Positions 1,607 through 14,268 of a stretch of DNA of 64,000 nucleotides are shown in pieces; within the stretch, counting starts at the first letter, position 1; the number at the start of each line of letters is the position of its first letter. A program made the position numbers and the translations under genes. The notes below the pieces were generated by a model. That model was given only the letters and a program-made list of their open reading frames with translations, had not been told where the DNA came from and ran no database searches. Origin of the DNA: a virus; IMG/VR virus record IMGVR_UViG_3300012928_000001, positions 1-64,000 of that record. One strand, 5' to 3'.

Positions 1607-2028
1607 GCTCAGCGGGGACAAGGCGATCACGATCATGGAAGTGCACACCCGCGGCTACACTTCGGAGTCCTGGGAGTGGCGAGATCAGCTGCGCGATGAG
1701 GGCTGGATTTTTTACGACGGGTTTGACCGGCAGTTCAAACTGACCGAGCTTTCGCTCTCCATGCTCGACGGGATCGAGACCATCGCGGTGATCCGACTCG
1801 ACGATCTGCGCGCCCGCGATGGCCCCTTGGACGAAAAAGGGCGAGCCCGCTTTGCGGGCTTCTACGGTGGGTAGCGCGTTCAGCGCTTGTCAAGCAAGAT
1901 CGTACCTGGCACGCCAGGACGATCTTTTTTCGATTTTTGCCAGAAAAGCGCTTGCACAGCCTGCACAACTTCGAGTAAGGTTCTTTCACCGGGCGAGAGA
2001 GACCGCCCGCAAGAAAGCAGACAGAACG

Positions 2029-3189
2029 ATGACCACCGACTCCAAGCTCACCGCCACCGCCCCCAACTTCACCAAGATCGACGACGTCTACTACTGCGCC
2101 GACGCCTACCGCATCGAGCCCTACTACACCAAATCGGGCAAGATCGGCGGTCGCAACCTCTTCGCCCTCACCGACGGCAAGGTCGCCCACGTGGGTTGGT
2201 ACCGCCGGCTCTCTCACGCCAAGACCGCGGCGCACACGCACTGGGTCAACGCTGGCTCGCCCGCCATCGACTTTGACATGCCCGTCAAGATCATCACGGA
2301 GATGACCCCGGTCGACCCCGAGCGCGAGGGCTGGGGCGCCGTGTCCAAGCGCGAGGGCTTGGGCATCGGCCCCGCGAGCACCGGCGACACGATCGAGCTG
2401 CTCACCCCCGCCCCGACCCCCGAGACCGACGAGGAGATTCTGGCCCGGCTCACCGCCCGCTTTGCCGCGATGTCCAACCTGGTCGACTGCATCATCACCG
2501 GGGCCGTTCGCTCCCTGATCATCACCGGCCCCGGCGGCGTCGGCAAAACCTACCCCACTGAGGCCGCCTGTCACGAAGCCATCGACGCCGGGGTGCTCCC
2601 CGCCTTTCAAAAGGTCTCGGGCACCATCTCCGCGAGCAAGCTCTTTCAGGCCCTGCACAACGTCAAGGATGGTGGCGTCCTACTGCTCGACGACGCCGAT
2701 CGGATTTTCGAGGACATCGACGCGCTGAACCTGCTCAAGGCCGCGCTCGACACGTCCAAGGTGCGCACCATCTCGTGGCTGAAAAACTCTAAGTGGCTCG
2801 AAAACGAGGGCATCCCGGCTCAGTTCAACTTTGACGGACAGGTCATTTTCATCAGTAACATCGACTTCCGCCGCGAGCAGTCGCGGACCACGAAGATCGC
2901 CCCCCACCTGAAAGCGCTCGTGAGCCGCTCGCTACTCCTCGACTTGGAAATGTCGAGCCAGCGTGACCTGCTCGTGCGGATCGAAGACATGGTCATCAAT
3001 CAAGGGATGCTCGATGACATGGGAGTCGACAAGGACGGCGCCCGCGAGATCGTCGACTTCATGAAAAAGCACGCCGATAGCTTCCACTCCCTGACCTTGC
3101 GCGAGGCGGTGAAGATCGCCCAGCTGCGCAACGCGGCTCCCTCGTTCTGGTGCGAGATGGCCATGAACACCGTCGCCGGCAAGCGCTAG
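2029..3189 (+). CDS. AAA+ family ATPase
   Basis: Walker A GPGGVGKT, Walker B LLLDDAD, sensor-like FISN, SR motif; start set at the ATG right after class-1 copy 1. Confidence 0.85.
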   Translation: MTTDSKLTATAPNFTKIDDVYYCADAYRIEPYYTKSGKIGGRNLFALTDGKVAHVGWYRRLSHAKTAAHTHWVNAGSPAIDFDMPVKIITEMTPVDPEREGWGAVSKREGLGIGPASTGDTIELLTPAPTPETDEEILARLTARFAAMSNLVDCIITGAVRSLIITGPGGVGKTYPTEAACHEAIDAGVLPAFQKVSGTISASKLFQALHNVKDGGVLLLDDADRIFEDIDALNLLKAALDTSKVRTISWLKNSKWLENEGIPAQFNFDGQVIFISNIDFRREQSRTTKIAPHLKALVSRSLLLDLEMSSQRDLLVRIEDMVINQGMLDDMGVDKDGAREIVDFMKKHADSFHSLTLREAVKIAQLRNAAPSFWCEMAMNTVAGKR

Positions 3190-3218
3190 CACCCACGGGG
3201 AGGGCCCAGCCCTCCCCC

Positions 3219-3277
3219 GGCGTCCGCCCCTGTTGCCGGGGCGCTGACGAGGGCCCGCAAGGCAGGGCCGAAACGCC
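3219..3277 (+). ncRNA. Hammerhead ribozyme, type III (copy A)
   Basis: GGCGUC^ / stem I CGCCCC:GGGGCG / CUGACGA / stem II GGCCC:GGGCC / GAAA / stem III GGCGU:ACGCC; predicted cleavage after C3224. Confidence 0.9.
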
Positions 3278-3291
3278 AAAGGAGAGAGACC

Positions 3292-3498
3292 ATGTCCCGC
3301 AACCGCAATCACGATCAGTCTTCCCCCCGAGCCCGAGCAAAGACCCGCGCCATGATGCGCAAGGCGTGGCGAGCCCGCCGCGAGGCCAAGCGAGCCCGCG
3401 CGGCCGGCCACAACTTCGACGCGGCGCAAGCCGAGATCCGGGCCGCCAAGCTCGACCCCGACGGCGCCCCGACCTTGCTCCCCGCTCCCGCGATCTGA
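3292..3498 (+). CDS. Small basic hypothetical protein downstream of hammerhead A
   Basis: AAGGAG upstream of ATG; 68 aa, Arg/Ala-rich. Confidence 0.6.
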   Translation: MSRNRNHDQSSPRARAKTRAMMRKAWRARREAKRARAAGHNFDAAQAEIRAAKLDPDGAPTLLPAPAI

Positions 3499-3543
3499 CA
3501 CGATCGTCTGTGACTCGCACCCGTGTTTGGCCTACGGTAACGC

Positions 3544-4461
3544 ATGACGCAACCGAACGCATGGACATGGGGCGGGCTCGAAGTTCACTACACAAAGGAC
3601 AACTTGCCCGGCGTGCTCCTGAACGCACTCGCGGTCAAGATCCAGATCAACGCGAGCACGCTCCGCGGGCGATGGCGACGAAGCTTCGCCGCGACGGATG
3701 ACAGCTTGCCGACCGAGTCCAAGACGCCATATCGCACCGTCGTGACCGAGTCGATCGCCGAGACGATCGCCACGGAGTACAACACCGACAACCCCAAGAT
3801 CGCGGCGAGCTTGCGATCGTTGGCCCGCGACCTGTCGGGCCTGTCCGTCATCGCCAAAGCGGGGGTCCAAGTCCCGCCGATCCAAGCCCCGCCGATCCAA
3901 GCCCCGCCGGCCGTGCCCCCGCTCCCCGGCGAGCCCAAGGTCGACCCCTTCGAGCCGGGGCCAACCCCCAGCTTCGATCCCCTCCCGCCTATCGACCGCT
4001 TGGGCCGGCTCCCGCGTCTCTCGCCCGGCCTCCCCCCGGTGCTTCGGACCACGCTCAAAGACACGCTCCGCGAGCTGCTCGCCGAGATGCTGCCCGAGGC
4101 CCTGCACCGCGCCGTGCACGGCCTGAGCGTGAACCTGGGAGACGACGATCTCGGGACGCTCCGGCGGATCGTCCGTGAAGAGCTCGCCGCCGCCCACGGC
4201 CTCGCGGACTACCCCGCCTGGGTGATCGAGGCCGAGCCCCGGTACATCGCGGGCGAGCTCGGGACCTACGCCGCGATCGCGTCCGCCTACGCCGTGCCGC
4301 TCGTCGACGTCGAGGAAGTCGGGCGCGCCCGCTCGTGGCACCGCCGGCAGACCGAGCACGCCCGCGCCAAGCTGGCCGAGGCCCACGCCCGCGCCCGCAA
4401 GGCCGCCGCCGAGACCCCGGCGCCCAAGCCCGCCCCCGGCGTCACCATCGGGCGCTCATGA
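3544..4461 (+). CDS. Putative DNA-binding protein with Pro-rich linker and C-terminal TerS-like HTH
   Basis: C-terminal PAWVIEAEPRYIAGEL...SWHRR matches the HTH region of 18193..19062; starts directly after a class-2 promoter. Confidence 0.5.
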   Translation: MTQPNAWTWGGLEVHYTKDNLPGVLLNALAVKIQINASTLRGRWRRSFAATDDSLPTESKTPYRTVVTESIAETIATEYNTDNPKIAASLRSLARDLSGLSVIAKAGVQVPPIQAPPIQAPPAVPPLPGEPKVDPFEPGPTPSFDPLPPIDRLGRLPRLSPGLPPVLRTTLKDTLRELLAEMLPEALHRAVHGLSVNLGDDDLGTLRRIVREELAAAHGLADYPAWVIEAEPRYIAGELGTYAAIASAYAVPLVDVEEVGRARSWHRRQTEHARAKLAEAHARARKAAAETPAPKPAPGVTIGRS

Positions 4462-4946
4462 GCTTGCGAGGGAAGCTCGAAGCGCTTGCGCGGGTGCTCC
4501 CCCGTCGACAGGTACACGTCGACGGGGAGCTTTACCTTGACCGCTATTACCTGTGGGGCCGGCCGCCCAATCAGGATGGGTGGGATGGGTTGATCGTCCC
4601 GCGCTTGCGCTTGCTCCCGACGGCCTACCTGCATCACTTCCATCGCCCCGACGGTGATCGGCTTTGCCACAATCACCCGTGGCACGCGATGGGCCGAGTC
4701 CTCGCCGGCCACTACACAGAGCAGCGCTATGCAGGGCATCCCGCCGATGGTGTGCCTACTGGGTTGATCAAGCGCGAGCCGGGAGAGTGGTACGGGATCA
4801 CGCCGGACACCTTCCATCGCCTCGCCCGAGTCAGCGAGGGCGGCGCGTGGACCCTGTTCATCATCATCGGGGACAAGCTCCAGTCGTGGGGCTACTGGGA
4901 TCCGGTCGGAAAGTTGTTCATCCCGTGGCGCGAGCGCTGCCACTGA
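4458..4946 (+). CDS. Cupin-like phage protein
   Basis: YLDRYYL...YLHHFHRPD...HNHPW...GHYTE...FHRL...WTLF...WGYW, a His-rich cupin-type pattern. Confidence 0.6.
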   Translation: MSLRGKLEALARVLPRRQVHVDGELYLDRYYLWGRPPNQDGWDGLIVPRLRLLPTAYLHHFHRPDGDRLCHNHPWHAMGRVLAGHYTEQRYAGHPADGVPTGLIKREPGEWYGITPDTFHRLARVSEGGAWTLFIIIGDKLQSWGYWDPVGKLFIPWRERCH

Positions 4947-4970
4947 GCCCCAGGGCGCACACCATCTCGG

Positions 4971-5007
4971 AAGATCGGTCAAGAGAAATCTTGACCGATC
5001 TTTTTTT
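4971..5007 (+). terminator. Intrinsic terminator fused to class-1 copy 2
   Basis: Perfect 14-bp stem AAGATCGGTCAAGA/TCTTGACCGATCTT, GAAA loop, T-tract. A related hairpin lies at 1896-1930 before copy 1. Confidence 0.8.
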
Positions 5008-5106
5008 CGAAAAATCGCCAGATACCGCTTGCACAGCCTGCACAACTTCGACTATATACGTCTGGCGGGGGCGAGAGAGACCGCCCCCGAGAAAGCAGAC
5101 AAGATC

Positions 5107-5400
5107 ATGGCCCGCAAGTTCACCAAAGACCCCGCCCTTACCGCTCGCGTCACCGGCACCATCAAGCTCCAGGCCATCGGAGAGACCAGCGCCATCCCCG
5201 CGGGTGACCTCAAGCCGGGTGACGTCACGATCTGGAACTTTGGCGGACAGAACACCGTGGTGCGCATCGACCGCGAGACCGCGAAAACCGTGTGGATCAC
5301 GTTCTCCTATTACTGCAACGTCAACAAAGAGGTTGTGGTGTCGAGCAAGCCGCGCCGCCTCAAAAAGGATCGTCTGGTCGGATTCAAGACCTGGCACTGA
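5107..5400 (+). CDS. Early array hypothetical protein (SH3/KOW-like beta pattern)
   Basis: ATG follows class-1 copy 2; AGDLKPGDV motif. Confidence 0.7.
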   Translation: MARKFTKDPALTARVTGTIKLQAIGETSAIPAGDLKPGDVTIWNFGGQNTVVRIDRETAKTVWITFSYYCNVNKEVVVSSKPRRLKKDRLVGFKTWH

Positions 5401-5423
5401 TCGAAGGGAAGGGACAAAAGACC

Positions 5424-5690
5424 ATGACCGCCAACACCGCCAAGATCATTAAGCGCCACTCCCGCAAGATCCTCGACGCCCTCACCGGCTGGCGCGAGGA
5501 TGCGGCCCGGCATGGCTACCCTAGCACCGGGATCGACCCGGAGCGGCGCGCGGTGATCGTGCTCGTGCGCGATGGTCGCCGCTACAGCGCGATCCCCCAA
5601 TACCGCACTGAGCCCGTGGGTGCTGAGATCGACTGCACTACTGGCCTCATGGCCGACTATGACTGGGCGGTGGTCGCGCAAGTCGCTTGA
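5424..5690 (+). CDS. Early array hypothetical protein
   Basis: Purine-rich leader before ATG 5424; stop abuts class-1 copy 3. Confidence 0.6.
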   Translation: MTANTAKIIKRHSRKILDALTGWREDAARHGYPSTGIDPERRAVIVLVRDGRRYSAIPQYRTEPVGAEIDCTTGLMADYDWAVVAQVA

Positions 5691-5800
5691 TCAAGATTTT
5701 TTCGAAAAATCGCCAGATACCACTTGCACAGCCTGCACAACTTAGACTAGAGTACTTTCACCGGGCGAGAGAGACCGCCCGCGAGAAAGCAGACAGAACG

Positions 5801-6583
5801 ATGACCACCGAGACTTTCATCCGCGCCAACCCCACCCGCCTCCCCTCCGGTTACTGGGGCGTCAAAGGCACCGGCCGTATTCCCGCGCTGAATGAGCCTG
5901 TTCGCGTCCAGACGCGTGGTGGAAAGACCTGGTACGCGCAGATCACGAGCAAGCCGCAGGTCACGGCTTGGGGCTGGCGCGCGAGCAGCGAGAGCATGAG
6001 CAAGGCCGACGCGCAGTCTTACGTGCGCAAGCTCCGCAACCGCCCCGTGATCCCCATGACTTGGCCCGAGGACCCCACGCCCGAGCCCGCTCCCGAGCGC
6101 AAGCCGGACGCGAACGGCTTCTATCCTGCGCCCCCGGCCAACGGTCGACCCAAGTGGGAGCCCATGACCCCCGCCGTGCACGGTGAGCCCGTGTGGTCCG
6201 GCGAGTGGTCCACGCTCACGCTCAACCGCTCCGGCAAGTTTGATCTGTCGGTGTTCGGGGACACGCACTGCGGGCTTGCCGACCGAGACGGTAACGTCCC
6301 CTGCACGTACGCGCTCACGCTCGTTTGCGAGGCTAGCGGCCTGGATAAGGACGGTTTCCTGGTCGAGCAGGTCGGGATCGATCGGTTCTTTAACGAGGAT
6401 CTCGGCCCCGTGGGTGTGAGCTGCGAACTGCTCGCCCTGAACTGTGCGCGCGAGCTGTACCGCAAGATTCGCCGCGAAAACCCCCACGTCAAGATCAAGG
6501 GCCTGCGTCTCACCATCGCCCCGACCCCCGAGGGTATGCAGGGCGCCGCGGACATGACTTTCGCGTGGGGGGAGGGGCTCTAG
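5801..6583 (+). CDS. Two-domain protein; C-terminal half possibly QueD/PTPS-like T-fold
   Basis: ATG follows copy 3; HCG...YALTL...LDKDGFLVE...SCELLA...LRLTI pattern resembles 6-pyruvoyl-tetrahydropterin synthase spacing but lacks the HGH motif. Confidence 0.4.
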   Translation: MTTETFIRANPTRLPSGYWGVKGTGRIPALNEPVRVQTRGGKTWYAQITSKPQVTAWGWRASSESMSKADAQSYVRKLRNRPVIPMTWPEDPTPEPAPERKPDANGFYPAPPANGRPKWEPMTPAVHGEPVWSGEWSTLTLNRSGKFDLSVFGDTHCGLADRDGNVPCTYALTLVCEASGLDKDGFLVEQVGIDRFFNEDLGPVGVSCELLALNCARELYRKIRRENPHVKIKGLRLTIAPTPEGMQGAADMTFAWGEGL

Positions 6584-6749
6584 CCCGTCCAGGGCTCGCG
6601 CCCGTTCTGCGCCAATCTGAGGGCCCCAAACGGGGCCCTCATTTTTTTTCAAAAATCTGGCGTTTACCCCTTGCACAACCTGCACAACTTAGACTAGAGT
6701 ACTTTCACCGGGGGCGAGAGAGACTGCTCCCAAGAAAGCAGACAAGATC

Positions 6750-6959
6750 ATGACCGCCGCCGACATCGCCATCAAGCTTACCCGCGAGCAACACATCATC
6801 CTCCGTGACTGCACCCACGGCCACACCCGCGAGCTTTCCCGCCTCCCCGCGCCCCTGATCGGGCTGCGCGATTACAAGCTGGCCCTGACTGACCGCGCGT
6901 TCGCGGTCGCCGCGTGCGGCGCGTTCCTGCATGAGGACATTTACTCGGTGGGGAACTGA
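6750..6959 (+). CDS. Early array hypothetical protein
   Basis: ATG follows class-1 copy 4. Confidence 0.7.
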   Translation: MTAADIAIKLTREQHIILRDCTHGHTRELSRLPAPLIGLRDYKLALTDRAFAVAACGAFLHEDIYSVGN

Positions 6960-6961
6960 GC

Positions 6962-7210
6962 ATGGCATCCGAGCACCCGATCACCGAAATCAGCGCCAAG
7001 TGCGTCTCTAACTCCCGCGTCAGGATCACCGCCAACCTCGACGGCCACGCCGAAATCACGATCGAGCTCCGCCGCGATGGCGCGCAGGTGATCGCAGAAT
7101 CGGCCAAGTGGCACAATGGGCAGGGCTTCGCTAGCACCGTGCATGTCTCGCGCGTCCCCCGCAACGTTATGCGCGTCTCGAAGAATCTGGCACGCGATCT
7201 GCTCGCCTAA
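6962..7210 (+). CDS. Early array hypothetical protein
   Basis: Coupled to the upstream ORF; stop abuts copy 5. Confidence 0.6.
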   Translation: MASEHPITEISAKCVSNSRVRITANLDGHAEITIELRRDGAQVIAESAKWHNGQGFASTVHVSRVPRNVMRVSKNLARDLLA

Positions 7211-7316
7211 ACTTTTTTCGAAAAATCGCCAGATTGGGGTTGCACAGCCTGCACAACTTAGACTAGAGTACTTTCACCGGGGGCGAGAGAGTCCCCGCCA
7301 GAAAGCAGACAAGACC

Positions 7317-7517
7317 ATGCCCACCGAGATCACCTACTTCACCTGCGTTCTCTCCTTCCCCACCAACCCCGACCATCGCACCGCGTGGCACCCCTACTAC
7401 GCCACCGGCAAGCGCTCGCGCCTCACCCGCGGCGCCTTCGACACCGAGCAGGAAGCCCACGATTGGGCGAGCGAGCAGGGGATCCACCCGAGCACCTACA
7501 CTGTCCAGGGCTACTGA
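7317..7517 (+). CDS. Early array hypothetical protein
   Basis: ATG follows copy 5; GAFDTEQEAHDWA motif typical of small phage proteins. Confidence 0.7.
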   Translation: MPTEITYFTCVLSFPTNPDHRTAWHPYYATGKRSRLTRGAFDTEQEAHDWASEQGIHPSTYTVQGY

Positions 7518-7545
7518 GCCCGCTCCGGGGCCCACGAGGGCCCCA

Positions 7546-7601
7546 CCCGTCCGACCCCTACCGCTGGGGCGCTGATGATGGCCCAGCAAGGCCGAAACGG
7601 G
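7546..7601 (+). ncRNA. Hammerhead ribozyme, type III (copy B)
   Basis: CCCGUC^ / stem I CG(A)CCCC:GGGGCG / CUGAUGA(U) / stem II GGCC:GGCC / GAAA / stem III CCCGU:ACGGG; predicted cleavage after C7551. Confidence 0.88.
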
Positions 7602-7616
7602 AAAGCAGGCAAGATC

Positions 7617-7823
7617 ATGACCACCACCGAGACTGTAATCGTCGTCACCTACGCGAATGGAGCGTCCAGCGCGTACCGCTCCCCCGAGACCATGCGCGAG
7701 TGGGCGGCCGACGCGGACCCGATCAACGCCCAAGCGTTCCGCACGATGGCCGACATGATTGATAGCGCCGCGTTGTCGGGCTCCGCGGGGGGCTTTCGCT
7801 TCCGCGTGATGCGCGTGCGCTAA
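7617..7823 (+). CDS. Early array hypothetical protein downstream of hammerhead B
   Basis: Leader GAAAGCAGGCAAGATC-ATG is a variant of the class-1 translation-initiation region. Confidence 0.7.
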   Translation: MTTTETVIVVTYANGASSAYRSPETMREWAADADPINAQAFRTMADMIDSAALSGSAGGFRFRVMRVR

Positions 7824-7941
7824 GCTCGCCAAAAGTTTTTTCGAAAATCTGGCGATCTGGGGTTGCACAACCTGCACAACTTAGACTAGAGTACTTTCAC
7901 CGGGGGCGAGAGAGACCGCTCCCAAGAAAGCAGACAGACAA

Positions 7942-8124
7942 ATGCAGATCTTCACCATCTCCGGCGTTACCTACACTTTCGAGATCCTCGGCGCCCTTGC
8001 CAACGCGCGCATTTTGGCCGCCATCGAGATCCGCGCCGAGCGCGGCGAGGACATGAGCTACTTTGACGACCGCATCGCGGCCGTCCAGGCCAAGGCCACG
8101 ATCCGCCCCCGCCGCGCGAACTGA
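7942..8124 (+). CDS. Early array hypothetical protein
   Basis: ATG follows copy 6; followed by hairpin terminator 8131-8162. Confidence 0.7.
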   Translation: MQIFTISGVTYTFEILGALANARILAAIEIRAERGEDMSYFDDRIAAVQAKATIRPRRAN

Positions 8125-8260
8125 GAGATCTAGGGCCCCAGGGATGGGGTCCTAACTTTTTTCAAAAAATCGCCAGATAGCACTTGCACAGCCTGCACAA
8201 CTTCGAGTAATACTTACTCACCGGGCGAGAGAGACCGCCCCCAAGAAAGCAGACAAGATC

Positions 8261-8437
8261 ATGACCATCGACAAGTCCAAGCCCCTCACCACCGGCACCC
8301 GTCACTCCATCGTTTGCATGATTCGCGCCGTTGGCGGCTGCAAAAAGCGCCGCGGACAGGATGTCTGGGACACGGTTGATGGTGATGTCCTCGAAATCCG
8401 CGCACACGGCGACACTCTTGCGCTTTTCGCTCGCTGA
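8261..8437 (+). CDS. 58-aa early array protein (not in the supplied ORF track)
   Basis: ATG follows copy 7; MTIDKSKPLTTGTRHSIVCMIRAVGG...LALFAR, stop TGA 8435-8437. Confidence 0.65.
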   Translation: MTIDKSKPLTTGTRHSIVCMIRAVGGCKKRRGQDVWDTVDGDVLEIRAHGDTLALFAR

Positions 8438-8466
8438 TCACGCACCCCCACCGGAAAGCCAAGATC

Positions 8467-8748
8467 ATGACCACCGCGACGCCCATCACCATCGAGACCC
8501 GCCCACTCGCCTACTTTCGCGCCCACGCGGAGCCCCACCCCGCACGGGTCGACCTGAACAGCTTCCGGGCCGGCTGGATCCTGTGGTGTTACCTGCGCGG
8601 TGACGAGGACTGCAAGAATGGCGCGGAGCTCATGGGCTACCAATACGCGGCCGAGTACAACGACAACGGGGGCGGCGCTCGCCCGAGTGCGGAAGACGCG
8701 CAAGATCTTGACGCGAGCGATATCAAGCAAGCGATCGAGTGGCTCTAA
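8467..8748 (+). CDS. Early array hypothetical protein
   Basis: Partial leader GAAAGCCAAGATC-ATG; stop abuts copy 8. Confidence 0.7.
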   Translation: MTTATPITIETRPLAYFRAHAEPHPARVDLNSFRAGWILWCYLRGDEDCKNGAELMGYQYAAEYNDNGGGARPSAEDAQDLDASDIKQAIEWL

Positions 8749-8855
8749 CTTTTTTCGAAAAATCGCCAGATTGCTCTTGCACAACCTGCACAACTTCGAG
8801 TAAGGTTCTTTCACCGGGGGCGAGAGAGACCGCTCCCAAGAAAGCAGACAAGATC

Positions 8856-9188
8856 ATGGCCCTTCCCAAGACCTCCCCCGCCCTCCCCGCCCTGACCCTC
8901 GCCATCCTCGCCGCCGATGGCCGCGAGCTCCGCGAGGCCATGTTCCCGAGCGCCAAGACCGCGGGCGACGCGCTCAAGGCGCTGGGCGCCAAGCGCCACG
9001 GCCGCTCCCGCGTCTTTGACGTCGAGTACGCCGGGCGCACCATGACCGTTCAGATCCACAAGATGGGGCACAACGCGTTCCGCGTTTGGCGCATCGACCA
9101 GCTTCAGGCTTTCTGGGCCGAGACCGTGAGCGAGAGTGTCCTTTCGGACTACAGCGAGGGCCGCGCCGTGATCGAGTACATCGGCTAG
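8856..9188 (+). CDS. Early array hypothetical protein
   Basis: ATG follows copy 8; stop abuts copy 9. Confidence 0.7.
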   Translation: MALPKTSPALPALTLAILAADGRELREAMFPSAKTAGDALKALGAKRHGRSRVFDVEYAGRTMTVQIHKMGHNAFRVWRIDQLQAFWAETVSESVLSDYSEGRAVIEYIG

Positions 9189-9295
9189 AACTTTTTTCGA
9201 AAAATCGCCAGATACCACTTGCACAACTCGCACAACTTCGAGTAGAGTACTTTCACCGGGCGAGAGAGACCGCCCGCAAGAAAGCAGACAAGATC

Positions 9296-9538
9296 ATGAC
9301 CGCCAAGACCGCTCCCGCCCTCGTCGTCCCCGCCCTCTACGATGTCAAGACCCGCCTGATCCTGGTCCGCGTGAGCGACACGCGCAGCGAGCTTCGCATC
9401 GCTACCAAGCGCGGCGCGGTGCGCCCTTTGGCCAAAAACTCGTTCATCATGGACGCTGCACACGAAAACGCGCTCGCTTACGCCAAAACTCTGCACGCGA
9501 CCCCGGGCGAGCTGTTCGGCTGCGCCATCTACGCCTGA
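9296..9538 (+). CDS. Early array hypothetical protein
   Basis: ATG follows copy 9; stop abuts copy 10. Confidence 0.7.
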   Translation: MTAKTAPALVVPALYDVKTRLILVRVSDTRSELRIATKRGAVRPLAKNSFIMDAAHENALAYAKTLHATPGELFGCAIYA

Positions 9539-9646
9539 ACTTTTTTCGAAAAATCGCCAGATACCACTTGCACAACCTGCACAACTTCGAGTAATACTTA
9601 CTCACCGGGGGCGAGAGAGACCGCTCCCAAGAAAGCAGACAAGATC

Positions 9647-10102
9647 ATGACCACCGAGATCGTTACCACCCCCGCCCTCATCGACATCACCAACATGAGC
9701 GATGCCGCCCTCGACGCCCTACTGGGCCTGGAGCCGGCGCGAGAGCTCTACCGCGTCGAGTGCGGGGAGATGGAGCGCGCCCACGCCAAGTGCCTGTCTG
9801 AGCTCGCCAAGGGCGAGATCGGGGCCAAGGCCCTCCGCGCCGCGGTGGCCCGCGGAGCCCACCCCGTGGAGCTCCAAGACTGGGCGGTCAACGTCCTGCG
9901 CGAGGGCGGGATGCGCCGGGTCGGCCCCGCGCACGTCGCGCTCATGGACAAGGAGCTGCGCGTCGCCCGCTCCCTCAAGATCGAGGCCGACGCCGAGGGC
10001 CTGGAGACCTACCTGCGCGCCCGCCGCGCCAGCCACGGGCTCCCCCGTCTCACCCGCGCCGGCCGTGCGCTCATGTTCGCGCTCATCGCTTACAAGCTCT
10101 AA
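9647..10102 (+). CDS. Early array hypothetical protein
   Basis: ATG follows copy 10. Confidence 0.7.
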   Translation: MTTEIVTTPALIDITNMSDAALDALLGLEPARELYRVECGEMERAHAKCLSELAKGEIGAKALRAAVARGAHPVELQDWAVNVLREGGMRRVGPAHVALMDKELRVARSLKIEADAEGLETYLRARRASHGLPRLTRAGRALMFALIAYKL

Positions 10103-10242
10103 ACCCGGTCCGGGGCCCGATCTAGGGCCCCTCGCAGATTTTTCGAAAAAAGCTGGCGATTTCACTTGCACAACCTGCACAACTTCGGATAAGGTCTCTT
10201 CACCGGGCGAGAGAGACCGCCCGCAAGAAAGCAGACAGCACG

Positions 10243-10701
10243 ATGACCGCCAAGCCCGCCCCCGCCCCCACCTTCACCGACGACGTCACCACCCGCGCCA
10301 CCCTGCTCACCGGCAAGATCGGCGACGACTGCACGGTCCGTTACGATTTCGCCGAGTACTGGATCATGGTCGATGGCGACCATGTCAAGACCGACGGCAC
10401 GCGCGATGCGCTGCTCAACTCGCTTTCCAAGGCGACCACCCTGGCCGAGGCGCAGGAAGACGCGCGCAATGTTCGCAGGGTCCTCTCGGGCCGCGCCGGT
10501 TACGACCTGCGCAGCATCCGCCTGGTCCGTAAAGTCGGTTTCGTGGTCATTGCGTACGGTTTCGAGCAGGATCTGAGCGAGGACGGCGAAGGGGCGATCA
10601 TGGCCACTGAAAAGGTGCTCGCTGGGGAGCGCCCCACGCATGAGCCGCGCTCGCGCGACTTTTTCCGGGAGTTCATCGCGGCCCGCGCTGCCGCGGCTTG
10701 A
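10243..10701 (+). CDS. Early array hypothetical protein
   Basis: ATG follows copy 11; followed by terminator TAGGGCCCC-TGAC-GGGGCCCTA-ACTTTTTT. Confidence 0.7.
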   Translation: MTAKPAPAPTFTDDVTTRATLLTGKIGDDCTVRYDFAEYWIMVDGDHVKTDGTRDALLNSLSKATTLAEAQEDARNVRRVLSGRAGYDLRSIRLVRKVGFVVIAYGFEQDLSEDGEGAIMATEKVLAGERPTHEPRSRDFFREFIAARAAAA

Positions 10702-10841
10702 GGGAAGATCTAGGGCCCCTGACGGGGCCCTAACTTTTTTCTCAAAAATCGCCAGATACCCCTTGCACAACCTGCACAACTTCGAGTAGAGTACTTTCAC
10801 CGGGGGCGAGAGAGACCGCTCCCAAGAAAGCAGACAGACCG

Positions 10842-11231
10842 ATGCAGACCTGGAAATCCGACCACTCCGACGTCACTCCCATCGTTTACCTCATGAACAT
10901 TCTCGACACGTTCATGTCCCTGCTCGCCGTGGACGGCGAGCGCGAGGCCTACGGCGCGCTTTTCCGCTCCCGCTTCGACGGCGCCGAGATCCCGTTTTGC
11001 GAGGAGAGCGCCCGCGAGCTCGCCCTCGCGGAGATCGCGCCCCTGCTTTACGACTCCGCCGTCGACGGTGACCGCGCGCGGCGCGAGGGCTTCGACTTCC
11101 TCTTCGACGCGGAGCCCGCCGACTACTACCCCGGGCGCTACATGCGCGGCACCCCGCTGGACGCCTACGTGTGCCAGATGCTCGATCTCCCCTACCGCTC
11201 CGCCTTTCCCATGATCTTGATCGCCTGCTAA
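10842..11231 (+). CDS. Acidic early array hypothetical protein
   Basis: ATG follows copy 12; stop abuts copy 13. Confidence 0.7.
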   Translation: MQTWKSDHSDVTPIVYLMNILDTFMSLLAVDGEREAYGALFRSRFDGAEIPFCEESARELALAEIAPLLYDSAVDGDRARREGFDFLFDAEPADYYPGRYMRGTPLDAYVCQMLDLPYRSAFPMILIAC

Positions 11232-11335
11232 CTTTTTTCGAAAAATCGCCAGATACCCCTTGCACAACCTGCACAACTTCGACTAGAGTACTTTCACCGG
11301 GGGCGAGAGAGTCCCCGCCGAAAGCAGACAAGATC

Positions 11336-11626
11336 ATGGCCCGCAAGACCCGCAAGCCCGCCCGCGCCTACAAGCCCGCCCGCAAGACCCGCAAGCCCGC
11401 CTCCCGGCGCAAGAGCGGAAAGCAGATCATCGCGGACGCGTGGAACGCGGTTGAGTGCGCGATGGACTGGACCATGGCGTGCCTCGATGACATGCCGGAG
11501 CTGCTGGCCGAGGCCGAGGCCGAGGAAGAAGAGGCGCGCCGCGCGTACAAGCTCGCGGTGGCCACGCACGGCGCCAACATCCCCCCGGCCCTGCGCGCCG
11601 CGGCGATCGCCAAGTTCGCGGCATGA
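11336..11626 (+). CDS. Early array protein with basic repeat N-terminus and acidic helix
   Basis: ATG follows copy 13; (ARKTRKPA)x2 then EAEAEEEE. Confidence 0.7.
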   Translation: MARKTRKPARAYKPARKTRKPASRRKSGKQIIADAWNAVECAMDWTMACLDDMPELLAEAEAEEEEARRAYKLAVATHGANIPPALRAAAIAKFAA

Positions 11627-11737
11627 TCAACTTTTTTCGAAAAATCGCCAGATTGCTCTTGCACAACCTGCACAACTTCGACTAGAGTACTTTCACCGGG
11701 GGCGAGAGAGACCGCCTCCAAGAAAGCAGACAAGATC

Positions 11738-12064
11738 ATGACCATCGAGATCACCGTCACCACGACCGCCCCCGCCCCCCCCCGCGTCACCGCCAACCCC
11801 GAGTGGTCCAGCATCGGCGCCACCCCCGACGCCGAGAACACCTGCCCCGCGGAGCGCGCCCGTCCCGAGCGCAAGGGCCGCCTGGAGATCGTGTCTCTGA
11901 GCAACGACTCGGTTTGGTCCCTGACGGATTGCACCTTGGATCAGGCCCGGCACATCCTGGATCAGGTTCAGGCCACCGGCGACAAGGATGCTGCGCTCAT
12001 GGTGGGCGGCGCGTGGGACGTTCGCCCCGCGAACTACCTGATCACCCTGTACCGCTGCGCCTGA
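11738..12064 (+). CDS. Early array hypothetical protein
   Basis: ATG follows copy 14. Confidence 0.7.
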   Translation: MTIEITVTTTAPAPPRVTANPEWSSIGATPDAENTCPAERARPERKGRLEIVSLSNDSVWSLTDCTLDQARHILDQVQATGDKDAALMVGGAWDVRPANYLITLYRCA

Positions 12065-12164
12065 GATTTTTTTTTTATAAATCGCTTGCACAACCTGCAC
12101 AACTTCGAGTATATAGATCTGGCGGGGGCGAGAGAGACCGCCCCCGCCGAAAGCAGACAAGATC

Positions 12165-12473
12165 ATGCGCTACTCCCAGACCGCCCCCACCAAATCCGAT
12201 CTACAAGCGATCCGCGCGCTTGGAAAGTCCCTCAACCTTTCAAGCCCGCTACGCGTGCGCAAAAACGCCGGATCTCTGCGTTACAGCGCCACGGTCAAGT
12301 GCCTCGATATCTCGACTGGCGAGGCTATCGCCCTCCTTGAAGGACTGAGCGCGCTGGGTTTTGACAGTGGCGTCCCGGGGGGCAAGTTTGATCTGGCGCA
12401 CACCATTGCGCAGACGAAAACGCATGGGTTTACCACCGTCAATCTACAGGTGTCGCGCTGGGTGCGCGGGTAA
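12165..12473 (+). CDS. Early array hypothetical protein
   Basis: ATG follows copy 15. Confidence 0.7.
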   Translation: MRYSQTAPTKSDLQAIRALGKSLNLSSPLRVRKNAGSLRYSATVKCLDISTGEAIALLEGLSALGFDSGVPGGKFDLAHTIAQTKTHGFTTVNLQVSRWVRG

Positions 12474-12497
12474 GCACAACTGAAAGGATCTCGACCG

Positions 12498-12974
12498 ATG
12501 ATCGTCTACCGCGCCAAGATCAATCGTCCCGCCTCCACTCGCCGCCCCGCAACCGACACGCGCGGCATGGATCCTCGCGTCGCCGCGCAGCACCGCAAGC
12601 GCGACAGCACGGGCCTCGCTGCCGAGGGCAGCCACGCGGGCGGACCCTGCCCCGCTGTGTGCCTCGCGTCGCTCACTGGGTGGTCCTACGGGGAGGCCAG
12701 CACCTTCCTCGCCCAGTACGGCTATCGCCGCGCAGGGTTGACGAGCACGGCGATCAACCGGGCGATCGCCAAGGCCATCGACGCACCCACCCGCCGGCTT
12801 TCGATCTCCATTGGGGCCACGGTCGCGCAGGTCGCCCGCGAGTTCCAGCGCCAAGGCGCAACCGGCTGGATCTACTCCAGCAATCATGTGATGCCCGTCA
12901 TTGACGGCGAGATCCAAAACGCATCGAAAACTCAGTTGCGCATGAAGTGTGAGGAGGCCCATGCGTTCGTCTGA
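12498..12974 (+). CDS. Hypothetical protein, possibly papain-like (Cys...His) fold
   Basis: GPCPAVCLASLTGWSYGEA and later NHVMPVIDG; AAGGA upstream. Confidence 0.45.
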   Translation: MIVYRAKINRPASTRRPATDTRGMDPRVAAQHRKRDSTGLAAEGSHAGGPCPAVCLASLTGWSYGEASTFLAQYGYRRAGLTSTAINRAIAKAIDAPTRRLSISIGATVAQVAREFQRQGATGWIYSSNHVMPVIDGEIQNASKTQLRMKCEEAHAFV

Positions 12975-14268
12975 TACTCACCCGAGCTTCGCTATCGTGG
13001 CGGTCCGCGTGACCGCGTCGGAAGCATCAATCATCCAAGACTTACTGGCCCAACGTGGCAAGGATTTTGAACCGCTCGCGCGCAAGTTCGCCGCTGCAAT
13101 GACGCAGTGCATTTTCACTCGCGCCATGGATCGGGACTATCACAACGGACTCGACGAGCGCCGCAAATGGCTTGTCCGTGTCCCGCTGGACAGCAACCGC
13201 AAGCCCGGTGATTTCGTGAACGTCTCGCGCCGAGACTCCACTACATCATCGGTCAAGCTCGGTCCCATGATCCGCAAGGGCCACCGCTACGCCTACCACA
13301 CCACGGACCGCAAGCGAGCCGAGGGCGAGCCCAAGGCCGAACGGAAATACCGCTACTCGGAAGTGTGACTCACGCCCCCATTCGGCCTACAGAGAGATAC
13401 CTCCAATGACCGCTCACCACTACACGCCCGATCCCTCGATCCTCATCATCACCGGCCCGCAGTTCCGAAAGCAGACACGCGCCGAGCAGGTCGCCCAGTA
13501 TGACGCACAGTTGCGATTCATCATGGAGGCCATCGCCAACACTCCGACCACGCCGACAAAGCCCACCGACGTGATCGAGATCCGCGTGCTACTCACGCGG
13601 AAGCTCTTCACCGCCGTGCATGACGTGCTGAATCGGAACGGGTGGGAAGTCCACGAGGGCGAGCCCAACCCCGCGGGTCACCGCGGTGACGGTACATGGC
13701 CGATCATGCTGCGCCCGTCGATCGTGCGCGGGCCCAGCACGCGCACACAGCCCGTAGACACCGTCGAGAGCCCGCCGGCCGGCTGGGCGCCGCCCCCCGA
13801 CTGGATCCGCACTCGGGACGAAGCGCGCGCCCGTCTCGTGGCCGCCACGGAGGGCGAGGAATGAGCGGCGCGTGTCAGGCCTACTACGCCCCGATCACCA
13901 TCGGACCGCGTACCGGCGTGGTCATCGTGAGCGCCCCCGACAAGCCCACCGCGCGGCGCATGATCGCGGAGCACGTGCGGGATAACGTGCCCATTGAATC
14001 GCGCTACATCTCAGGCAAAGGTCTCTACATGGGGCCCAGCATGAACGCGATCCAACCCGTCAACGGCGACCCCGGTAAAGTCGTCTACTTCGATTCGGGG
14101 GTGTCCTGATGAGCCTCGCCGACGCCAAAGTGGGGGACCAGCTTGTCTGGGTTGCTGGGTTCCGCCGCCATCGCACAATCGTCACGGTCACTCGCGTCAC
14201 GGCCACACAGATCATCGTCGGGACGCGCAACAGGGTAGACCGGATCCGCAAGCGCAACGGTAGCGTCA

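Follow-up and report, generated by a model that had tools for sequence, protein, structure and literature searches.

A predicted type III hammerhead ribozyme with an additional core nucleotide in the promoter position of a phage early gene junction

The genome studied here is an IMG/VR virus record of 105,163 bp with direct terminal repeats and 64% G+C, whose first 64 kb (64,000 nucleotides, referred to as the window) were analysed; a run search placed the phage sequence in two marine metagenome DNA runs and in no RNA run. The window contains an early gene array with 15 near-identical promoter cassettes, all on the plus strand, between positions 1952 and 12105. The elements of a cassette follow one another in a regular order – often a GGGCCCC-type hairpin, then a palindrome with a T-run, TTGCACAACCTGCACAACTT, a -10-like TAGAGT, a 5′ hairpin, and a leader, GAAAGCAGACAAGATC, immediately 5′ of an ATG – and the palindrome TTTTTTCGAAAAA precedes each of the 15. 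Leader copies with three or fewer mismatches number 11, against a chance expectation of 0.02. A terminator scan calls T-run terminator-like hairpins at 6618, 8131 and 10711. A sigma-70 consensus scan of positions 2500-13000 reported zero promoters, the 15 cassettes included, and as it is blind even to these it is uninformative on a cryptic promoter within 7518-7616.

The interval 7518-7616 separates two small co-oriented genes (stop at 7517, start at 7617), downstream of the cassette at 7240. Neighbouring junctions hold a promoter cassette in this place, whereas here there is no promoter core and the interval is occupied instead by a GC-rich hairpin, a hammerhead motif on the strand of the genes (copy B), and the array leader (Table 1). 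Copy B is intergenic and on the coding strand, with the stop codon 28 nt upstream and the start codon 15 nt downstream, and this junction of hairpin, hammerhead and leader is the sole one of its kind among the 15 promoter-leader cassettes. The first-pass annotation of this DNA had proposed a hammerhead that replaces a promoter inside the early array, and both the motif and its placement are borne out: all of the hammerhead elements it assigned to 7527-7616 can be located in the sequence, including the predicted cut site after C7551, and the motif sits between a hairpin and a leader that are both of the array type. The product of the downstream gene, 7617-7823, has no Pfam or PHROG match. A longer reading frame at 7575-7823, starting from an ATG within the hammerhead core, was rejected in favour of the ATG at 7617, which directly follows the conserved leader.

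Table 1. Features of the copy B junction, its putative promoter, and the second hammerhead copy, in window coordinates
Feature	Position	Strand	Basis or remark
Promoter cassette core, TTGCACAGCCTGCACAACTT	7240-7259	+	One of 15 copies; putative promoter of a transcript with gene 7317-7517, the hammerhead and gene 7617-7823
Upstream small gene, 66 aa, stop TGA 7515-7517	7317-7517	+	Leader motif in front; translation; weak sub-threshold Arm-DNA-bind_4 match
GC hairpin, 7 bp: GGGGCCC 7527-7533, loop ACGA, GGGCCCC 7538-7544	7527-7544	+	Sequence
Type III hammerhead, copy B	7546-7601	+	Descriptor, covariance model, loop-loop complementarity of the family
Stem III, 5 bp: CCCGU with ACGGG	7546-7550, 7597-7601	+	Sequence
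C17, GUC triplet, predicted cut after 7551	7551	+	Sequence
Stem I, 6 bp: CG(A)CCCC with GGGGCG, A7554 bulged	7552-7558, 7566-7571	+	Sequence
Loop 1, UACCGCU, between the stem I strands of copy B		+	Sequence
Core CUGAUGA, then extra U 7579	7572-7578	+	Sequence
Stem II, 4 bp: GGCC with GGCC; loop 2 CAGCAA	7580-7583, 7590-7593	+	Sequence
GAA, then 3′ strand of stem III	7594-7596	+	Sequence
Post-hammerhead leader, AAAGCAGGCAAGATC, leading to ATG 7617		+	Sequence
Leader common to promoter cassettes, GAAAGCAGGCAAGATC	7601-7616	+	First G is the last stem III base
Downstream small gene, 68 aa	7617-7823	+	Translation; frame GC3 0.84
GC hairpin, 9 bp, preceding copy A	3197-3217	+	Sequence, fold
Type III hammerhead, copy A, extra G after A9	3219-3277	+	Descriptor; covariance model

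The hairpin upstream of copy B ends 7 nt 5′ of the predicted cleavage site. A similar GGGGCCC/GGGCCCC hairpin stands in front of the promoter cassette at 10100. The hairpin at 7527-7544 is kept in the minimum free energy (MFE) fold and has a local stability below that of 300 of 300 control windows. Terminator-like hairpins at other places in the array carry T-runs, and this one is without; its stem runs into ACCCGUCC and lacks the U-tract of an intrinsic terminator, and the terminator scan does not call it.

The core of copy B reads C3-U4-G5-A6-N7-G8-A9 at 7572-7578 and G12-A13-A14 at 7594-7596, with an A15.1-U16.1 pair formed by A7597 and U7550 and with C7551 as the H residue at position 17. 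Three helices surround this core, of which stems I and II are closed by loops and stem III is open. Assignment of the extra residue U7579 to position 10.1 was considered and rejected, since the residue that precedes G12 pairs with it in no register.

A strict descriptor was written from these elements. Its core part comprises CUGANGA, zero or one extra base, a stem II of at least 4 bp, and GAAA; its outer part comprises a stem I with 5 or more bp and no more than one bulge, U16.1, any residue but G at position 17, and a stem III with 4 or more bp. On both strands of the 105,163-bp genome it matches exactly twice, at 7546-7601 and at 3219-3277 (copy A), each time in an intergenic position on the coding strand, and none of 150 simulated genomes of matched dinucleotide content contains a match. 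We also trained a covariance model on 30 type III hammerheads drawn from other viral contigs, the window not being among its sources, and ran it on the window with filters off. Copy B scores 59.3 bits (E 1e-13); for copy A the score is 64.6 bits (E 4e-15), and the next-best match in the window, which is not a hammerhead, reaches 10.5 bits. The descriptor, with its zero matches in simulated genomes, and the independent covariance model strongly support the identity of copy B as a type III hammerhead.

The Rfam hammerhead models give no match in the window at the gathering threshold, none at E<=10 in the stretches 7400-7750 (351 nt) and 3100-3400, and RF00008 run over the whole genome leaves both copies unscored. 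In control searches the Rfam hammerhead models also miss every tested relative with the extra nucleotide, and RF00008 gives the canonical type III phage relative L054 39.3 bits, under its gathering score of 48.5. Since relatives used as controls are likewise missed or under-scored, we read the Rfam result as a limit of the models' reach rather than of the RNA. It is the one observation that would favour a chance resemblance in GC-rich intergenic DNA, an explanation effectively refuted by the absence of descriptor matches in the simulated genomes against two in the real one, and by the covariance model E value of 1e-13 for copy B. From its sequence, copy B is very probably a real hammerhead.

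Copy B also belongs to a larger group. A partial pattern – the core, one free base, a GGCC stem II and GAAAC, with stems I and III left free – matches at least 119 IMG/VR loci (L086-L204), and 116 of the 123 distinct matches complete a hammerhead, 93 of type I and 23 of type III. The free base after A9 is U in 116 of the 123 and G in three. The phage subfamily with an extra nucleotide, usually U, therefore has at least 116 complete members in IMG/VR, and the extra U of copy B, being the norm of a large subfamily, is no defect. An earlier pattern, made from the 3′ strand of stem I and the core, had returned 44 loci, two of them with hammerheads (L024 and L050); the remaining loci were rejected as chance matches in coding DNA. 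A pattern of stem I plus the core retrieved hammerheads that have the CGCCCC/GGGGCG stem I in common.

An additional residue at this core position has a precedent in the (+) hammerhead of CChMVd. As relayed in PMC3705267 from De la Pena and Flores (2001), this hammerhead tolerates an extra residue between A9 and G10.1, naturally an A, and gave its highest trans-cleavage with an extra U, 3-4-fold over the natural extra A. On that account CChMVd and copy B each carry one extra nucleotide at the same place in the core, and they are also alike in having a 7-nt loop 1 that begins with U and a 6-nt loop 2 that ends with A (PMC2632901). CChMVd is, however, a viroid RNA replicon and copy B lies in the mRNA of a DNA phage, and no sequence relationship is implied outside the core.

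Copy A lies between an AAA ATPase gene and a small basic gene. The leader downstream of it contains an AAGGAG Shine-Dalgarno sequence, whereas the cassette leader GAAAGCAGACAAGATC-ATG is without a Shine-Dalgarno sequence. The extra residue of copy A after A9, at window position 3252, is G. An extra G is rare in the phage family and, as relayed in PMC3705267, is strongly detrimental at this position in the CChMVd context, so by analogy copy A may be slower than copy B. The two copies are 70% identical to each other, and 77% and 81% identical, respectively, to one hammerhead of the 45-kb viral contig L050, which is the nearest sequence relative of both. As each is closer to hammerheads of other contigs than to its partner, they do not represent a recent duplication. 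L050 has three type III hammerheads within 1.3 kb (L050:1741-3021), each between small ORFs and two of them behind strong hairpins, and repeats the order stop, hairpin, hammerhead, ribosome-binding site, start. A very stable hairpin lies directly upstream of 10 of 35 type III members (binomial p 6e-6, relative to random windows taken irrespective of intergenic position).

Searches for close relatives of the phage covered INPHARED, IMG/VR and metagenome contigs, and none was found there. A blastn search of 7000-8300 against INPHARED returned nothing, tblastn with the ATPase found T4-like proteins alone at no more than 43% identity, and a related-locus search gave none with the ATPase as query and, with an ATPase alignment, only loci of 41% identity or less; the closest ATPase homologues (P0005-P0008) are 43-58% identical. 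The leader pattern has zero matches in IMG/VR, and the 29 matches of the promoter 20-mer in metagenome contigs all lie in unrelated sequence, where neither BLAST similarity nor a hammerhead is present. The AAA ATPase ORF (window 1819-3189) probably starts at ATG 2029 rather than at 1819, because its homologues begin at M71, which is invariant in the alignment, and a promoter cassette and leader occupy 1952-2028. The C-terminal half of the protein resembles phrog_1250 and T4-like phage proteins, with identities of about 40%.

The loops of the family point to a tertiary contact. In copy B, loop 1 and loop 2 could form the pairs G7563-C7587, C7564-G7586 and U7565-A7585 (GCU/AGC). Across the family the longest Watson-Crick match between the two loops averages 2.91, compared with 2.24 +/- 0.11 after loops are re-paired among members, and none of 2000 permutations reaches 2.91; the loop contact formed no part of any sequence selection. 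The matching loop segments covary, as in UGCU/AGCA, UCCU/AGGA, GCC/GGC and AGCA/UGCU. Stem I of copy B exceeds stem II by 2 bp (6 and 4 bp), a length difference that goes with pseudoknots in type III hammerheads (PMC3088659, Fig. S4 legend), and its loops fit the motif described in PMC2632901, loop 1 beginning with U and having a pyrimidine at position 6, and loop 2 ending with A. A short pairing of loops 1 and 2 is accordingly a probable feature of the subfamily, and in the RNA of copy B itself the three pairs listed are possible ones.

The stems give a more qualified picture. It had been suggested at first pass that the stems of copies A and B differ while pairing is kept, as expected under selection for function. 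This applies to stem III, where two base pairs are compensated, but not to the others, as stem I is nearly identical apart from the bulged A and stem II has the same GGCC core. The argument from the two copies is thus thin, and the real evidence for covariation comes from the wider family: when 34 type III members are aligned, 94-98% of the cells in the three stems are paired and double changes are numerous. There is some circularity in this count, since a descriptor that requires pairing had selected the sequences, and the case therefore rests on the covariance model and on the counts from the partial IMG/VR pattern.

Two features of copy B bear on how well it might cleave. In the nearest-neighbour model its MFE structure is not the hammerhead fold but an alternative rod, more stable by 3.2 kcal/mol; copy A shows a gap of 4.8 kcal/mol in the same direction, against a family median of 0.3. 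In both copies the rod amounts to the loop 1-loop 2 pairing extended into stems I and II. In addition, the bulged A7554 in stem I is absent from the other 34 members of the family. Together with the finding that insertions and other small changes around the loop contact of one tested hammerhead lower its activity by orders of magnitude (PMC3088659), these features raise the prospect that copy B is a hammerhead by descent that is weak or decaying, with slow or negligible cleavage, and that gene 7617-7823 is translated from uncut bicistronic mRNA by way of the conserved leader. We regard this as rather unlikely, as all of the core residues, the three stems and the loop complementarity are intact and the covariance score is near that of copy A. 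Moreover, stem I could fold before its competing 3′ partner is transcribed, and similar energy gaps occur in other members such as L142 and L194.

The same energetics could be taken to indicate a conditional switch, in which the rod (GCUGGG with CCCAGC, the extended loop 1-loop 2 pairing) competes with the active fold, and temperature, Mg2+, translation of the upstream gene or a factor sets the cleaved fraction and tunes the ratio of the two gene products. In both copies in the window, unlike in most members, an alternative fold is favoured (by 3.2 and 4.8 kcal/mol, against the family median of 0.3). The energy model leaves out the tertiary contact and the core, however, no ligand or partner is indicated, and GC-rich stems may produce the alternative helix incidentally; a switch of this kind seems improbable.

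Copy B has the anatomy of a type III hammerhead, belongs to the extra-nucleotide phage subfamily, and lies between an array-type hairpin and an array leader. We infer from this arrangement that the site would be transcribed and cleaved, with consequences for the stability and translation of the products, and consider it likely that 7546-7601 on the plus strand is a functional type III hammerhead of that subfamily which processes a bicistronic early mRNA. In this proposal copy B is transcribed as part of a two-gene message from the cassette at about 7240, whose promoter activity is suggested by its anatomy. Because the junction has no promoter core, gene 7617 would need transcription from this cassette through the upstream gene, and as the hairpin at 7527-7544 has no U-tract, RNA polymerase would read through it. 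Stem I would fold first, followed by stems II and III, and the RNA would cut itself after C7551, so that the hammerhead probably divides the two-gene message into single-gene messages.

The upstream product, the mRNA of gene 7317-7517, would then end in a 2′,3′-cyclic phosphate seven nt past the stable hairpin. The mRNA of gene 7617-7823 would begin with a 5′-OH, with its first base paired in stem I, and would continue through two hairpins to the standard leader, an arrangement approximating the 5′ hairpin and leader of promoter-made transcripts. The downstream gene, which has no promoter to itself, would in this way gain a defined, structured 5′ end like those of its neighbours, and each of the two messages would have a separate fate. 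That the 5′ end of the downstream gene might be generated by ribozyme cleavage was already part of the first-pass annotation, and the suggestion agrees with what has been proposed for phage hammerheads (PMC3088659).

Copies A and B could alternatively act as a pair, not serving local junctions but releasing, and perhaps circularising or splicing, the 4.3-kb RNA between them. In favour of this, both belong to one subfamily and are encoded on one strand, and ligation or circular products have been considered possible for phage hammerheads in tandem (PMC3088659), but such products were sought and not found in that study. Five promoter cassettes and a strong terminator lie between the two copies, which makes a single A-to-B transcript unlikely, and each copy is nearer to hammerheads of other phages than to its partner. 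We therefore think joint action of this sort highly improbable, and favour local processing of the two-gene message at the copy B junction.

That hammerheads can flank phage genes has been recognised since the work of Perreault et al. (2011), and copy B is a further member of this group (PMC3088659). That study described bacterial and phage hammerheads by the hundred, in prophages often arranged in series around a single gene; tandem phage and prophage examples cleaved in vitro, one array also did so in E. coli, and it was proposed that hammerheads cut long phage transcripts into single-gene mRNAs (PMC3088659). Copy B is like these phage and prophage cases, for example the triple hammerhead around ardA in Agrobacterium tumefaciens, in being intergenic, on the coding strand, one of several in its genome and adjacent to small genes, as well as in its possible pseudoknot-type loop contact and the proposed cutting of transcripts (PMC3088659). 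It differs from them in carrying an extra U after A9, and in lying inside a regular array of 15 cassettes, in the slot of one promoter, with the array hairpin and leader kept. A further parallel is HHphage of haloviruses HF1 and HF2, which lies 13 nt upstream of an early gene start and for which the mapped transcript 5′ end matches the cleavage site to within 3 nt (PMC3088659). HHphage has core insertions near C3 and is tied to high salt, whereas the core of copy B is consensus except for the extra U. Rfam RF00008 (Hammerhead_3) describes the same topology and core as copy B, although the model leaves both copies unscored. According to a 2019 review, the function of phage hammerheads is still open (PMC6765202).

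The proposed arrangement also recalls an engineered one. In RiboJ-type synthetic insulators a hammerhead and a hairpin are placed between promoter and ribosome-binding site, and cleavage gives a defined 5′ end that makes the translation start region independent of upstream sequence. RiboJ is an engineered part taken from a satellite RNA hammerhead, while copy B is natural and is proposed to set the 3′ end of the upstream message as well.

A broader reading, which we put forward tentatively and doubt more than we credit, combines two separate suggestions: that hairpin, hammerhead and leader form an exchangeable module which replaces terminator, promoter and leader in phage early arrays, and that the extra-U hammerheads are a distinct clade. 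If the first were true, the module would be a natural insulator that confers a standard structured 5′ end without a promoter and is swapped by recombination at the shared hairpin and leader. The array itself provides a natural comparison, with 15 genes or gene pairs behind a near-identical promoter cassette and one behind a hammerhead, all with the same leader. As the two types of junction stand side by side, the effect of the hammerhead on phage mRNA is directly testable by swapping them.

With regard to the second suggestion, the extra-U hammerheads may be a distinct and under-annotated clade of phage ribozymes. The subfamily escaped the Rfam 15 hammerhead models at every locus tested, which matters for ribozyme annotation. 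Other self-cleaving ribozyme matches occur in viral contigs whose hammerheads have the extra U or share the CGCCCC/GGGGCG stem I: at L098:193-1336 there are two copies of twister-sister, with 88 and 79 bits, and a RAGATH-5 match below threshold, L134:3805-3890 has a sub-threshold twister-P1 match, and type II hammerheads are present at L052:12206-13243 and L054:3338-3401.
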